Program-made: the position numbers and the translations under genes | DNA from: a virus | Taxonomy: Duplodnaviria; Caudoviricetes | Length of the DNA stretch: 64,000 bases | Reading direction: 5' to 3' (one strand) | IMG/VR virus record: IMGVR_UViG_3300014205_000172 | Coordinates: 160,001 to 224,000 of that record | Shown: piece after piece, positions 29,720 through 31,933 of the stretch | Position numbering within the stretch: the stretch's first letter is position 1 | How the letters are laid out: each line of letters opens with the position of its first letter | The notes under the pieces: generated by a model | Databases searched by the model: none | What the model was told of the DNA's origin: nothing | Seen by the model: only the letters and a program-made list of their open reading frames with translations

Positions 29720-30295
29720 ATGACGTTTGTATCATCGCGAAAGATTCCACTGATCTGTCAAACTGTTGGCGCGCTACCGGTTATCACAATGGAGAACTAT
29801 CCAAAGTGGTACGGACTTGAGGTCATCCATCCAAATGGCACTGTAGAAGATGTCGATCCAGATCTGTTGGATGAGTTGTGTGGCGATAAGCCTTTGATGG
29901 GTGACCATAACTACCATCCAGACCTATTGAAAATGGTAGCTAACAGACTTGGCGGTATTGTCGATCAGGTCTCCCTGTACACAGCCGCTGGCCGCTGGCA
30001 AGTGGAAGTTGTTGATGAGTGTAATGAATATTCATACTCGGCCATCCACCGCAATAGTTCCACTTGGGTTGAAAATACGGTCAGTGAGGAGATTGCGCAA
30101 CTCACTCTGTTTCGAATGAAGTGGCTTAGTGAAAATATGCCAGATTGCATTCAAAGCGTACGTATTCTTTACCGTCCTAATGGTACGCTTGTGCTGAATG
30201 ACGTTACAGCAACCATTTCGGATCTCGACAAGCTAGGTGTTCCTACGTCTATGTTGCAGATGTATGCCAGTAACTACTTACTAAAACCCGTATAG
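29720..30295 (+). CDS. Hypothetical protein
   Basis: GAGG RBS. Confidence 0.7.
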   Translation: MTFVSSRKIPLICQTVGALPVITMENYPKWYGLEVIHPNGTVEDVDPDLLDELCGDKPLMGDHNYHPDLLKMVANRLGGIVDQVSLYTAAGRWQVEVVDECNEYSYSAIHRNSSTWVENTVSEEIAQLTLFRMKWLSENMPDCIQSVRILYRPNGTLVLNDVTATISDLDKLGVPTSMLQMYASNYLLKPV

Positions 30296-30299
30296 GTAT

Positions 30300-30470
30300 G
30301 TAGAGAAACCGTAATGCTCGCGACCGGTTGTAAGTGGAAGCTTAGGGCAGCTGGCCAATTGCGATCACTGAAGCCGGTGCGCGAGCGCCTTATTCTAGCT
30401 TTATCCCAGCACGATACCTGCATTAGACATCAGTAGCAGAGAAAGGCTTTTCTCAGATTACTAGGTGGCA
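30300..30470 (+). ncRNA. Putative structured RNA, unit A
   Basis: Long stem gctcgcg-accggtt / agccggt-g-cgcgagc; shares motifs with unit B. Confidence 0.45.
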
Positions 30471-30472
30471 AA

Positions 30473-30898
30473 ATGTTTGATATCGTATCTGTCGCTGACC
30501 GGACTATTCGTGAAATCTATTTGGACGAAAGTCTGAAGGATGAGGAACGAGGTGCTTTAGTCATCGTGTTGGGATCGGGTCATCGATTCGAGATTTATGA
30601 CGGCCATGGTCAAAGCTGTTGTGAACATCGTTACTTGGAAACAAGCGATGATCTTTCTGCATTAGTTGGGGAGCAGTTAGTGTCTGTGGTGTGTGAATAT
30701 CACGACAATGGATCAGAGTGGGGTGACGCTCAAACCGAAGCCGCCTCTATCCATATCCGATCAGATCGCGACTCTGTCGTGGTCGGTTGCTACAACTCGA
30801 ACAACGGCTACTACGGTGGTCTTAGTCCAGTGGTTGATGTAATCGACTCCAATGGTTTTGTGATTGTGAGAGGGGCTGACTTGCAACAACCCGGTTAA
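30473..30898 (+). CDS. Conserved phage hypothetical protein (CCE...NGYYGG family)
   Basis: QSCCEHRY, NNGYYGG. Confidence 0.75.
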   Translation: MFDIVSVADRTIREIYLDESLKDEERGALVIVLGSGHRFEIYDGHGQSCCEHRYLETSDDLSALVGEQLVSVVCEYHDNGSEWGDAQTEAASIHIRSDRDSVVVGCYNSNNGYYGGLSPVVDVIDSNGFVIVRGADLQQPG

Positions 30899-30934
30899 TG
30901 CGGACCGGCGCTTCGGCGCCGACTTATTCAAGTG

Positions 30935-31185
30935 TTATGCCTGCGACCCACTAAGTAATTTCCGCCGTGCCGAAGCCTCGGGCGGGGGTGAATAGGTGAG
31001 TGTCGCGGGCGCCTAATCTGCTGCAGCAGATACTGTACTGGTACCGTATTGTGATTGTCACAGCCCCTCGTAAGGGTGAATAGGCCATATAGACATCAGG
31101 ATGATGGAAAAGACCTCGCAGACGGATGGAACATCAGTGCAGTAGCCTTTCCCATACTGGCCTGCTTCGGCAGGTCTTTATGCTG
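30935..31185 (+). ncRNA. Putative structured RNA, unit B
   Basis: gcctgcgac/gtcgcgggc multi-stem; gcctaatc/gaataggc; ends in UUCG terminator hairpin. Confidence 0.5.
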
Positions 31186-31234
31186 TAAGTATCAACTTAG
31201 ACATCTGCTTATATATCCACCAAGGGATCTTATC

Positions 31235-31933
31235 ATGAAATTTGGCTCTTATGACTTTAAACAAGTCTGTCGCAATGAAGTAGAGTCACTGCCAGAAAGT
31301 AGCGGGTTGGTACTTATCCGTGATCGGTCCGATCATCGCTTTGACGTACTCTGCGCCAATAGCTTACGGCGTCGTCTGTATCAGGCAGTTAATGGAGAAG
31401 TGGGTTCGCTTATTAAAGCACGTTATCCCATCTCTCCTGAAGATCACGTTGAGTTCTTCTACTGCTCGCTTGGGTATGTCGCTAACCTGAATGTCCACAA
31501 GTACCGGCTGCGTATGCTCCTTAAAGGCAAGCTTGTTACTCAGAACACTCATGGTACTGACGGTCGTGGTTACAAGATCAACTTGTTTACCTACCCTGAA
31601 ACGAGTGAGTACTTCATCTCGATCCAAACCATGGCGTCCAGGGAAGATCCATTGATGCGTCTGTACCGGATGCTCAATGGGAAGATTAAACAGACGCACG
31701 TAACAGGCAATCCTATTGTAATGAACTTCTCGCGAAAGCGCGGTCCCTTCAATGAGACCAACTCTTTCATTCATGAACTCCGCAAGGCTGACATCCCAAC
31801 TCTTAACGAAGCAAAACAAGCTGCACGAGAATTAGCACTAGAACTTGGCACTCAATATTTGCTCACAGCCAATGTGGTTGATCGGGCACAGTGGAAACAT
31901 CCCGGATGGGATAAGGTCGCAAAACATGCTTGA
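31235..31933 (+). CDS. Tandem degenerate GIY-YIG-like domain protein
   Basis: LPESSGLVLI...ANSLRRRL in N-half; C-half similar to the 14065 ORF. Confidence 0.5.
   Translation: MKFGSYDFKQVCRNEVESLPESSGLVLIRDRSDHRFDVLCANSLRRRLYQAVNGEVGSLIKARYPISPEDHVEFFYCSLGYVANLNVHKYRLRMLLKGKLVTQNTHGTDGRGYKINLFTYPETSEYFISIQTMASREDPLMRLYRMLNGKIKQTHVTGNPIVMNFSRKRGPFNETNSFIHELRKADIPTLNEAKQAARELALELGTQYLLTANVVDRAQWKHPGWDKVAKHA

Follow-up and report, generated by a model that had tools for sequence, protein, structure and literature searches.

A locus in the 237-kb genome of a giant, phiKZ-like phage is what remains of a tRNA/small-RNA operon and keeps promoter and terminator signals of the phiKZ type; two of its elements, here termed unit A and unit B, are structured RNAs encoded on the + strand. 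The units are the first and last RNA elements of this operon, which is known from related phages. The locus lies in a 64,000-nucleotide stretch of the genome (hereafter the window) and was compared with three related phage contigs, designated L009, L052 and L053; counts over four genomes include the window. The letters and coordinates given in a first-pass annotation match on re-reading of the sequence, and that annotation overlooked both the operon remnant with its phage-type signals and the fact that its unit B is the first of three domains.

Unit A (30316 to 30389, + strand) consists, on the basis of folding and of its L009 orthologue, of a 71-nt irregular hairpin (30316 to 30386) with the apex GGCAGCUGGCCA, followed by an unpaired GCC. 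Domain 1 of unit B (30939 to 31013, + strand), as judged by folding and covariation, is a 72-nt hairpin (30939 to 31010) with the conserved apex UGCCGAAG and again an unpaired GCC. The closing stem is GCUCGCG/CGCGAGC in unit A, with GCC-UUAUUC following, and GCCUGCG/CGCGGGC in unit B, with GCC-UAAUC following, and the earlier observation that these stems are unlike in sequence yet both paired held true. The layout leading to the GCC is 7 bp, a 1-nt bulge and 7 bp in unit A, and 9 bp with a further interrupted helix in unit B; the hairpin helices as a whole are long and irregular, with 20 to 29 pairs and internal loops. Hairpin A folds at -40.0 kcal/mol (z -4.38) and hairpin B at -37.9 kcal/mol (z -3.58). 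Folding no better than that of shuffled sequences had been named as grounds for abandoning the units, and none of 200 shuffles was as stable as either hairpin. The complete intergenic stretches fold less markedly than the hairpins (z -1.87 and -2.45), and six of the nine hairpins tested have z between -3.6 and -7.1. The + strand folds better by 4 to 13 kcal/mol in 11 of 11 hairpins examined, which carry 38 G-U pairs on the + strand against 8 on the - strand.

A search of the whole window against Rfam returned no gathering-score match for the units, and the three matches obtained at E up to 10 within positions 30000 to 31500 are at chance level, none of them to a ribozyme or to RF00005. ARAGORN reported no tRNA genes in the window or in the whole 237-kb genome, and blastn found no match to cultured phages for positions 30250 to 31300. 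When the genome was scanned for hairpins followed by RCC, 16 sites passed over both strands, five of them single hairpins, with unit A at -38.3, unit B at -36.2 and a 94-nt site at -36.8 kcal/mol; there is therefore no genome-wide family of such hairpins. A reading as small ORFs was set aside: the ATG frames at the unit starts, translated by eye, span 40, 5, 10, 5, 37 and 23 codons, are unconserved and lack a ribosome-binding site. Listing every maximal stem of the clusters gave too much noise to be of use.

Orthologues of unit B with compensatory changes were found in all three related contigs. Across the four sequences, 89.5% of cells are paired and 5 of 19 pairs have changed on both sides, and the covariation value of 0.368 (against 0.212 for shuffled alignments and at most 0.14 for slid controls) is reached by none of 500 shuffles, with orthologue numbers, four for unit B and two for unit A, that lie below the need of a rigorous covariation statistic. 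The covariation that the annotation proposed to look for in homologues is thus visible as compensated pairs in unit B. The apex UGCCGAAG is invariant in all four orthologues despite altered stems, and the unit-B apex has 8 nt of complementarity to the terminator. The unit A orthologue in L009 (2336 to 2411) shows 2 compensated and 4 one-sided changes among 22 pairs, and unit A has a conserved apical motif, CAGCUGGCCA. The compensatory changes and the G-U pattern show selection on the RNA pairing.

The proposal of a non-coding RNA with a conserved closing stem and flanks around a free interior is borne out in so far as the orthologues covary; its further part, that units A and B are a duplicated family, is weakly supported. 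With a covariance model built from the four unit-B orthologues, unit A of the window scores 19.8 bits, for which a rough calibration gives an E of about 0.006 in 83.5 kb; unit A of L009 is missing from the results of this model even up to E 10. A chain-of-exact-words test between the two intergenic regions points the other way, with a score of 33 against 25.5 +/- 6.7 that was equalled or exceeded by 149 of 1000 dinucleotide shuffles. The interiors are indeed unrelated on comparison, and the identical patches common to both units are just 6 to 10 nt long. The 10-mer TAGACATCAG is exact at 30424 and 31090, and GGGTGAATAGG is exact at 30986 and 31074, both as first reported. In the close relative L009, the 10-mer is unconserved, reading TGGACATCAG in unit B and missing after unit A, and with at most one mismatch it occurs 6 times in the window against 3.8 expected, and is thus not enriched. 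The flank motifs have only two copies in the 237-kb genome. An IMG/VR pattern scan with these motifs gave seven stretches, which we regard as chance because the closing stem is missing in all of them, and IMG/VR scans with the unit-B pattern and with a 24-mer of the Z element (see below) each returned just two contigs that were already known.

The remainder of the locus is laid out on the same strand. Hairpin A is followed by a spacer and the 5′ UTR of a DUF7448 gene (30390 to 30472), comprising a TTAT tail, TAGACATCAG (30424 to 30433), a small hairpin (30439 to 30454) and the Shine-Dalgarno sequence AGGTGG. The DUF7448 gene itself (30473 to 30898; 141 aa; Pfam PF24240, E 1.4e-13), for which homologues at 41 loci have 28-42% identity and which the operons of the relatives lack, lies where the relatives have tRNAs and tRNA-like RNAs. 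Terminator 1 (30905 to 30927), formed by CCGGCGCUUCGGCGCCGA and then cTTAT, precedes a TATG (30936 to 30939) whose G is base 1 of hairpin B. The whole of unit B is a roughly 243-nt terminated RNA (30939 to 31181) in which domain 1 is followed by the small perfect hairpin AUCUGC-UGCA-GCAGAU (domain 2; 31016 to 31031) and by domain 3 (31032 to 31143), a stretch of about 112 nt that a long-range helix of 11 bp closes and that contains the second copies of GGGTGAATAGG (31074 to 31084) and TAGACATCAG (31090 to 31099). Domain 3 is missing in L052 and different in L053; in the comparison with L009, 13 of 175 columns differ, two of them paired columns in which the pair is kept in both cases.

The sequence TATG that unit A was noted to follow is present at 30297 to 30300, and it completes a candidate phiKZ middle/late-type promoter, TTAC-N15-TATG (30278 to 30300, + strand), with a predicted start at G30300. 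This motif occurs once per genome at the head of the non-coding cluster (2298 to 2320 in L009, 2950 to 2972 in L052 and 1991 to 2013 in L053) and is followed by TAG(A/G)A in all four genomes. The 16-nt leader that would run from G30300 through its remainder (30301 to 30315) ends in A-U, immediately ahead of hairpin A. In excerpts of a published account of phiKZ promoter motifs (PMC4666361), the late promoter is TATG with its start at G, and each single change in TATG cuts transcription strongly; by this meaning of the motif, the TATG ahead of hairpin B is a possible late-type start site. At the other end, the UUCG-loop terminator recognized earlier is present at 31159 to 31176, with TTTATGCTGT following. 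As a full signal (31159 to 31182, + strand), it reads GGCCUGC-UUCG-GCAGGUC and TTTATG and is 94-95% identical over 36 to 40 nt in the three relatives, whose operon likewise ends in a conserved hairpin-TTATGCYGT terminator. The operon terminator fits the phiKZ terminator motif ...TTATKYYGT as given in excerpts of a second report (PMC10914365), and the sequence suggests that the TATG at 31179 to 31182 may restart transcription for the next gene.

In the relatives, the corresponding region holds tRNA genes. Upstream of the homologue of the adjacent 232-aa gene, L053 has tRNA-Tyr, Gln, Asn and Ser as well as a fifth, odd tRNA, L052 has tRNA-Asn, and L009 has an odd tRNA; these are ARAGORN calls that match RF00005 at 38.7 to 68.5 bits. 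The five given for L053 are the sole tRNA matches in the complete 248-kb relative. The small-RNA cluster is co-oriented with the tRNA genes in all three relatives, and the first element after the promoter in all four genomes is a 61- to 74-nt hairpin followed by RCC, namely unit A in the window and L009, and an element of unrelated sequence, H1, in L052 and L053. Unit B is the last element ahead of the conserved terminator in all four genomes. An element that follows unit A in L009 (2415 to 2485) is 90% identical to the element after tRNA-Tyr in L053. The window phage has lost all tRNAs and kept the two hairpins. A search with the upstream protein matched the L009 contig alone, and the cultured-phage matches of the DHH protein are all distant (<60% identity). 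Parts of the locus are covered by contigs of two RNA libraries, and assembled contigs are blind to transcription, strand and ends.

The ends of the units resemble those of the relatives' tRNAs. An A-U pair of letters occupies positions -2/-1 in 12 of 18 elements (7 tRNAs and 11 others), against a background AT dinucleotide frequency of 5.9%, and these 12 include three tRNAs and both Z elements, whose first bases are U or C rather than G. The stem is followed by NCC in 17 of the 18, a count that is biased in that H1 and Z were noticed or scanned with CC in mind; only for A, B and the tRNAs did the definition not depend on it. The L009 tRNA-like gene ends in GCC-U, the same as the units; the non-tRNA elements end in RCC-U (one in RCC-G) and never in CCA, whereas six of the seven tRNAs encode CCA. 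The units have a helix that extends for at least some 12 bp from +1 and an unpaired 3′ RCC(A) in which A76 is not encoded, as expected of hairpin substrates of RNase P. Excerpts of a published study (PMC11143913) describe cleavage of model hairpin-loop substrates by RNase P via an RCCA-RNA contact, and also its processing of pre-4.5S RNA, phage M3 RNA and C4 RNA.

On this basis, the idea of a processing element, raised in the first-pass annotation, seems plausible, and we tentatively suggest, at somewhat less than even likelihood, that the units are tRNA-end mimics excised by RNase P-type processing and akin to T4 RNAC and RNAD. Transcription of the + strand would run from TTAC-N15-TATG (G30300) to the hairpin-TTATG terminator (31159 to 31182). 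The unit ends copy the ends of the relatives' tRNAs, with A-U before base 1, a G-C-rich helix of 7 to 10 bp and an unpaired R-C-C, and host tRNA end-processing enzymes would then excise the units from the operon transcript, with RNase P cutting at U|G and with 3′ cutting and trimming at or after RCC. The products would be hairpin RNAs comparable to T4 RNAC and RNAD and presumably stable, and in the window phage the same cuts would also trim the mRNA of the DUF7448 gene now found between them. Several features count against processing. The U at -1 is able to pair with R73, which would lengthen the stem. In the window and L009, unit B opens with the G of a perfect TATG, as suits the start of a transcript better than a site of cleavage. 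The units lack mimics of the T-loop and D-loop and are not matched by tRNA models. The phage encodes no Ro60, RtcB or CCA-adding enzyme, and readings that involve these or Y-RNA were rejected.

The apical motifs CAGCUGGCCA in unit A and UGCCGAAG in unit B may be functional. An extended form of the proposal, which we judge to be quite unlikely, is that the hairpins function as mimics of the tRNA acceptor end, have been kept by selection since the tRNA loss and, once excised in the manner of tRNAs, act via the RCC-tailed helix and the conserved apical motifs. Such mimics could possibly serve as decoys that draw off host enzymes or defence nucleases from the ends of tRNAs, or as handles for tRNA-type processing of the operon RNA or for its exit from the phage nucleus.

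The hairpins might instead be promoter-proximal small RNAs of the phiKZ style, an explanation we regard as the main rival and as somewhat unlikely. The phage RNA polymerase would start at (T/A)ATG, the hairpin G would be a 5′-triphosphate end, and transcripts would end at a terminator close by or continue past it; unit B would be a free-standing small-RNA gene of about 243 nt (30939 to 31181) and unit A the 5′ UTR or leader of DUF7448. The phage does possess phiKZ-type signals, with about 20 hairpin-TTATGCYGT terminators that fit the published motif and a 2.7-fold enrichment of TATG between genes (197 against 73 expected), and in both the window and L009 the start of unit B coincides with TTATG|CC, as at the G of a phiKZ late promoter. 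Abundant short RNAs of phiKZ, about 71 and 141 nt long, arise via premature termination and were confirmed by northern blot, the 141-nt RNA adjoining tRNA genes and having a hairpin that begins right at its UUAUG. In 201phi2-1, excerpts of a published report (PMC11512511) describe a tRNA from a middle promoter and a 5′ UTR-derived sRNA directly upstream of a tRNA. A hairpin and TTAT terminator is present for the whole unit-B RNA (31159 to 31181), whereas unit A has just a weak GCC-TTAT, flagged as terminator-like, and the tail of unit B (UAAU, UAGA) has no TTAT terminator. The start motif is moreover only AATG or CAATG at unit A in both phages and at unit B of L052 and L053, despite the intolerance of the phiKZ TATG to changes; unit A has a better promoter 16 nt upstream; and A-U also precedes elements that begin with U or C (tRNA-Asn, Z), which are impossible as TATG starts. 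Among 57 intergenic T[AT]ATG[CT][CT] sites, a strong hairpin starts at the G only for the two units (-40 and -38 kcal/mol), with the next at -34.4 and the other 54 between -6 and -29 kcal/mol.

If the hairpins were structural punctuation only, as RNase III-type sites, stabilising barriers to exonucleases or long terminators from which no functional RNA is released, their long irregular helices of 20 to 29 pairs with internal loops and their positions between genes and at operon ends would be accounted for. RNase III cuts the T7 early RNAs and T4 species 1 RNA at such hairpins, and hairpin A with TTATTC was called terminator-like, the upstream gene having no other terminator. We consider this reading unlikely: it leaves unexplained the A-U that precedes the stem, the RCC that follows it and the apical motifs, of which UGCCGAAG is invariant in four of four genomes, and the usual terminator of this phage is a short hairpin directly adjoining TTAT. 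We hold it to be very unlikely that the units are relics of decayed tRNA genes or repeated boundary elements for cassette exchange whose RNA function is incidental. The locus is mosaic, in that the DUF7448 gene is not between the units in L009, similarity to L009 breaks at window positions 30390 and 30927, and contigs of other public runs have 30323 to 30399 swapped for 235 other letters, or joins at 31099 or 30806/31077; every tRNA is gone from the genome, and A-B sequence similarity is at chance level. Yet the selected RNA pairing seen in the compensatory changes and the G-U pattern is at odds with relics, no tRNA similarity is left even at E up to 10, and the identical patches of A and B measure only 6 to 10 nt. 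PeSL cassettes of T4-type phages promote such exchange and consist of a stem-loop and then a sigma-70 early promoter; here, by contrast, positions 30200 to 31300 hold no sigma-70-like site on the + strand and one on the - strand, as in shuffles. The ideas of a self-cleaving ribozyme or of an RNA partner for a GIY-YIG-like protein, both from the first-pass annotation, are highly improbable. Synteny speaks for the partner, with unit B and the terminator ahead of the 232-aa gene in four of four genomes; the terminator and TATG stand between the two, however. Against the ribozyme idea, Rfam gave no ribozyme match (gathering score in the window; E up to 10 in 30000 to 31500) and the hairpins are almost fully paired, with no conserved unpaired core.

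The link once drawn between the units and the protein encoded at 31235 to 31933 (+ strand) thus consists of synteny. This conserved 232-aa protein has a GIY-YIG-like N-terminal domain by a weak likeness of fold, and family models did not reproduce the label: no Pfam family matches at E up to 0.1, and a search of 17 distant homologues gave no GIY-YIG match with E up to 0.01. The AF2 model has pLDDT of about 90 over residues 1 to 100, for which UvrC GIY-YIG chains rank 2 to 11 in Foldseek (TM 0.58-0.64 on target; E 0.017-0.21, which is weak), with TM 0.61-0.64 and E 0.017-0.15 for the UvrC domain among the top hits. The top match of a profile search is the same UvrC GIY-YIG chain (E 0.23), and in that alignment the first Tyr, that of GIY, is Ile or Val, and the second Tyr and an Arg are kept. 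Eight homologues were found, and an in-frame upstream extension of the ORF (31055) was dismissed because all eight begin MK(I/F)G and the terminator lies inside the extension. There was no tblastn match in cultured phages, and PHIKZ302 was ruled out as a homologue on comparison.

It has long been known that tRNA clusters of phages also contain small RNAs to which no role is assigned, T4 RNAC and RNAD among them, and recent transcript maps of phiKZ-like phages contain many short structured RNAs that are likewise unexplained. The locus described here is a natural experiment, with the bracketing hairpins, the promoter and the terminator kept in a lineage without tRNAs. That the hairpins are kept despite the loss of every tRNA argues that their function is independent of decoding. 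Their tRNA-like ends bear on mimicry of tRNA ends by phages as a way to punctuate or stabilise transcripts. If the reading as acceptor-end mimics were true, the units would represent a new class of tRNA-end mimic encoded by phages; if they are merely leader and terminator structures, the result is an ordinary annotation of an uncultured jumbo phage.

Within the limited set of literature searched, we found no description of RCC-tailed hairpins in phage tRNA operons, and several known systems resemble the units in part. The units share with tRNA (RF00005) the operon position, a size of 66 to 76 nt with RCC counted in, a G-C-rich terminal helix of 7 bp and the flanks, but they lack the cloverleaf and the D and T loops and are missed by ARAGORN and by RF00005 at E up to 10. 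4.5S RNA ends in ACC(C). Hairpin substrates of RNase P (pre-4.5S RNA, acceptor/T-stem hairpins, M3 and C4), as far as excerpts of the sources describe them, also have a helix from the cleavage site, a U at -1 and an unpaired RCC; unlike these, the units have no encoded A76 and no T-loop equivalent at 12 bp, and their cleavage is putative. The small RNAs that ONT-cappable-seq has revealed in phiKZ and 201phi2-1, whether derived from 5′ UTRs or intergenic, likewise have a TATG start and a hairpin-TTAT terminator and include short structured RNAs upstream of genes, one directly upstream of a tRNA and one beside the phiKZ tRNAs. None of the phiKZ RNAs inspected takes the form of the units, a single hairpin that closes at base 1 and has an RCC tail, and these small RNAs have no sequence or model similarity to the units (model R1 found nothing in 44 kb of phiKZ). 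Excerpts of two publications (PMC3014915, PMC9697503) present T4 RNAC and RNAD (species 1 and 2) as small RNAs from the T4 tRNA region with roles unknown; like the units, these are non-tRNA RNAs within a phage tRNA cluster and on the tRNA strand, a position that holds for the units in L009, L052 and L053, the window being without tRNA. The likeness is one of position and description, not of sequence comparison, and the present case differs from T4 in that the phage is phiKZ-like rather than T4-like and that the units are single hairpins of about 72 nt, kept after all tRNAs were lost.

Two long hairpins, here called units A and B, lie in the gene-free stretches (30296-30472 and 30899-31234) that border a DUF7448 gene (30473-30898; 141 aa; Pfam match with E 1.4e-13) of a phiKZ-like phage, whose record is 237,171 bases long with an estimated completeness of 95%, the window being its positions 160001-224000. 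All the sequence strings quoted for these units in the first-pass annotation are found where it placed them. The hairpin of unit A (30316-30386, + strand, 71 nt) has a folding energy of -40.0 kcal/mol (z -4.38), and that of unit B (30939-31010, + strand, 72 nt) has one of -37.9 kcal/mol (z -3.58). None of 200 shuffles folds as well as either hairpin, and the folding is thus beyond chance. The reverse strands are less stable (z -2.63 for A and -0.86 for B), and all 11 such hairpins collected from four genomes fold better on the + strand, by 4-13 kcal/mol, with 38 G-U pairs on that strand versus 8 on the other. This stability and G-U bias indicate that the hairpins are RNA structures read in the gene direction. 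Rfam and ARAGORN recognise no element at this locus.

No cultured relatives of the locus were found. The 232-aa protein encoded 3' of unit B (31235-31933, + strand) has eight homologues in a large protein collection, through which three related loci were reached: L009, a close relative (~85% nucleotide identity), and L052 and L053, whose homologues of the protein are 54-57% identical. Unit B is present in all three (L009 2705-2779, L052 3328-3393, L053 3205-3271), with 89.5% of cells paired in the alignment. The covarying homologues expected from the first pass are evident for this unit, since 5 of 19 pairs in the four-orthologue alignment are changed on both sides, and the covariation score of 0.368 (shuffled 0.212 +/- 0.039) is reached by none of 500 shuffles and compares with 0.14 at most in slid-partner controls. 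The apex UGCCGAAG is invariant in all orthologues. A single orthologue of unit A was found (L009 2336-2411), in which two pairs are compensated. We conclude that units A and B are real, selected RNA hairpins with no Rfam match.

The RNA of unit B is larger than originally described, extending to ~243 nt in total: the 72-nt hairpin is followed by a small perfect hairpin (31016-31031), a 112-nt third domain (31032-31143) closed by an 11-bp long-range helix, and a terminator. Its 13 differences from L009 over 175 columns include 2 in paired columns, both of which keep the pairing; in the minimal form seen in L052, just 13 nt separate the hairpin from the terminator. The apex UGCCGAAG(C) at 30968-30976 is also the exact complement of the terminator loop region (G)CUUCGGCA at 31163-31171, and this complementarity is kept at equivalent places in four of four genomes. 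It could serve in anti-termination or as a kissing contact, or it could have arisen by chance between two tetraloop hairpins.

The proposal that A and B are homologous is thinly supported. They have in common the flanks GTWATGC..GCGAC and GC-GCC-TWAT as well as the closing-stem design, and a covariance model built from the four unit-B orthologues returns unit A of the window as its top non-self match (19.8 bits; E about 0.006 in 83.5 kb, a roughly calibrated value). However, this model does not report unit A of L009, and a collinear exact-word test of both intergenic regions is not significant, with 149 of 1000 dinucleotide shuffles scoring at least as high as observed. Likewise, the exact 10-mer TAGACATCAG occurs in both window copies as quoted, but differs by one base in L009 unit B and is absent 3' of L009 unit A. 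We treat A and B as one kind of element, possibly paralogous. The 10-mer also has a third near-copy, TAGACATCTG, at 31198-31207, 37 nt 5' of the 232-aa gene start; ACATCAGT is repeated (30427/31131), as is CAGTAGC (30431/31140).

Directly 3' of the upstream gene, each of the four genomes carries one TTAC-N15-TATG followed by TAG(A/G)A (window 30278-30300, L009 2298-2320, L052 2950-2972, L053 1991-2013). This promoter-like motif fits the arrangement reported for phiKZ middle promoters, in which an element lies ~24 nt 5' of the TATG start and transcription begins at the G of TATG (PMC4666361); in phage 201phi2-1, a tRNA is reported to be transcribed from a middle promoter (PMC11512511). At the other end of the operon, all four genomes share the hairpin GGCCUGC-UUCG-GCAGGUC with adjoining TTTATGCTGT, at 94-95% identity. 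This hairpin is among about 20 GC-rich hairpins followed by TTATGC(C/T)GT in the whole genome of the window phage, a form reported as the phiKZ terminator motif (PMC10914365). Between genes of this genome, TATG is enriched 2.7-fold and TTATGCY 5-fold. From these promoter and terminator motifs it follows that phiKZ-type signals are used, and that A is the first element of the operon and B the last. The first element 3' of the promoter in L052 and L053 is a 61-74-nt hairpin of unrelated sequence (z -5.5 and -7.1). A second intergenic AAAAAGTTAC-N15-TATGTAGA is present at 93673-93695 of the window phage's genome (window -66327 to -66305), nearly identical to the motif heading the L052 and L053 tRNA operons.

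The corresponding position in the relatives, 5' of the 232-aa gene, holds tRNA genes. L053 carries tRNA-Tyr, Gln, Asn and Ser plus a fifth, odd tRNA, and these five form one cluster that accounts for all tRNA matches in a complete relative (248,574 bases). L052 has tRNA-Asn and L009 has an odd tRNA, whereas ARAGORN finds zero tRNA genes in the 237-kb genome of the window phage. The odd tRNA (L009 2603-2686, 46.4 bits; L053 2834-2915, 38.7 bits) matches Rfam tRNA and is called 'tRNA-???' by ARAGORN; it is unable to decode because a small hairpin with the loop UCGCU replaces the 7-nt anticodon loop. Between the units, L009 has no DUF7448 gene, its similarity to the window stopping at 30390 and 30927, and instead carries element Z (L009 2419-2477, L053 2217-2275), an unknown RNA of about 125 nt, and the odd tRNA. 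Z, a mini-cloverleaf of 56 nt followed by GCC, has three small arms and is closed by a 6-bp stem; it has no Rfam match and lies 3' of unit A in L009 and 3' of tRNA-Tyr in L053. Its 90% identity between phages whose 232-aa proteins share only 57% indicates strong constraint. L052 (3187-3325) and L053 (2375-2516) also encode one tRNA-like RNA each, about 140 nt long, in which a canonical T arm (GGTTCGAAT-type) is combined with a giant central arm. In L052 the apex of this arm has the 10-mer CAGCTGGCCA, which the apex of unit A also contains (chance probability roughly 0.03 by our own estimate). Units A and B are bracket elements of the tRNA/small-RNA operon of a phiKZ-like phage, kept after tRNA loss.

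Among 18 elements (7 tRNAs and 11 others), A-U occupies positions -2/-1 in 12, the background AT frequency being 5.9%. All but one have an NCC after the stem (17 of 18), a count that is partly biased because Z and the first hairpins of L052 and L053 were found with CC in mind. CCA is encoded in six of the seven tRNAs; the odd tRNA ends in GCCA in L053 and GCC-U in L009, and the non-tRNA elements have RCC-U, with one RCC-G. RNase P is reported to cut acceptor/T-stem hairpin models and to contact RCCA, and its reported substrates include pre-4.5S RNA and phage M3 and C4 RNAs (PMC11143913). Given these end signatures and this activity on hairpins, we tentatively favour, at somewhat less than even chances, a reading in which units A and B would be cut out of the operon transcript in the way that tRNAs are.

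The main rival, which we rate as possible though rather unlikely, is that the first G of each hairpin is a transcription start, yielding a short RNA in the phiKZ style. In the window and L009, the first G of unit B belongs to a perfect TATG, so that unit B may simply begin a primary transcript; phiKZ makes abundant short RNAs by starting at such sites, one of which, adjoining tRNA genes, opens with a hairpin right at UUAUG. However, unit A, and unit B of L052 and L053, have AATG or CAATG, and single changes in the phiKZ TATG are reported to nearly abolish transcription (PMC4666361). Elements without an initial G follow the A-U rule too: both tRNA-Asn genes, both copies of Z and the L009 odd tRNA start with U or C. 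Among 57 intergenic T[AT]ATG[CT][CT] sites, a strong hairpin starts at the G only at units A and B. Contigs from two RNA libraries span unit A, continuing as in L009, and run through unit B to 31511, although as assembled sequence they are uninformative on strand, ends or even transcription.

We consider it improbable that the units are RNase III-type or stabiliser hairpins, and somewhat more so that they are relics or recombination modules. The latter would accord with a locus that is hyperplastic and clearly mosaic in other public assemblies: one contig from another sample (X3) has 235 other letters in place of hairpin A (30323-30399), another (X2) has a junction at 31099, directly 3' of TAGACATCAG, and a third (X6) joins 30806 to 31077. 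A ribozyme, or an RNA partner of a protein, as the first-pass annotation suggested, is very improbable, and the 232-aa protein is linked to the RNAs by position only. Its 'GIY-YIG-like' label is fair but weak. The UvrC GIY-YIG domain is among its top Foldseek matches (target TM 0.58-0.64, E 0.017-0.21), as are T4 EndoII and I-TevI, and the same UvrC chain is its best PDB profile match (E 0.23); the AlphaFold model has a mean pLDDT of 70 (about 90 for residues 1-100). However, the protein has no Pfam family match, no GIY-YIG match was obtained for any of 17 distant homologues, and Ile/Val stands where the first Tyr of the motif is expected in the UvrC profile alignment. One distant homologue (P0015, 475 aa) carries a dCTP deaminase-like domain (PF22769, E 4.4e-17) as a fusion.

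On the excision reading, units A and B would correspond to T4 RNAC and RNAD, small RNAs from the tRNA region of T4 whose roles are described as unknown (PMC3014915, PMC9697503). The hairpin family is new, and its kind is already known, if poorly understood.
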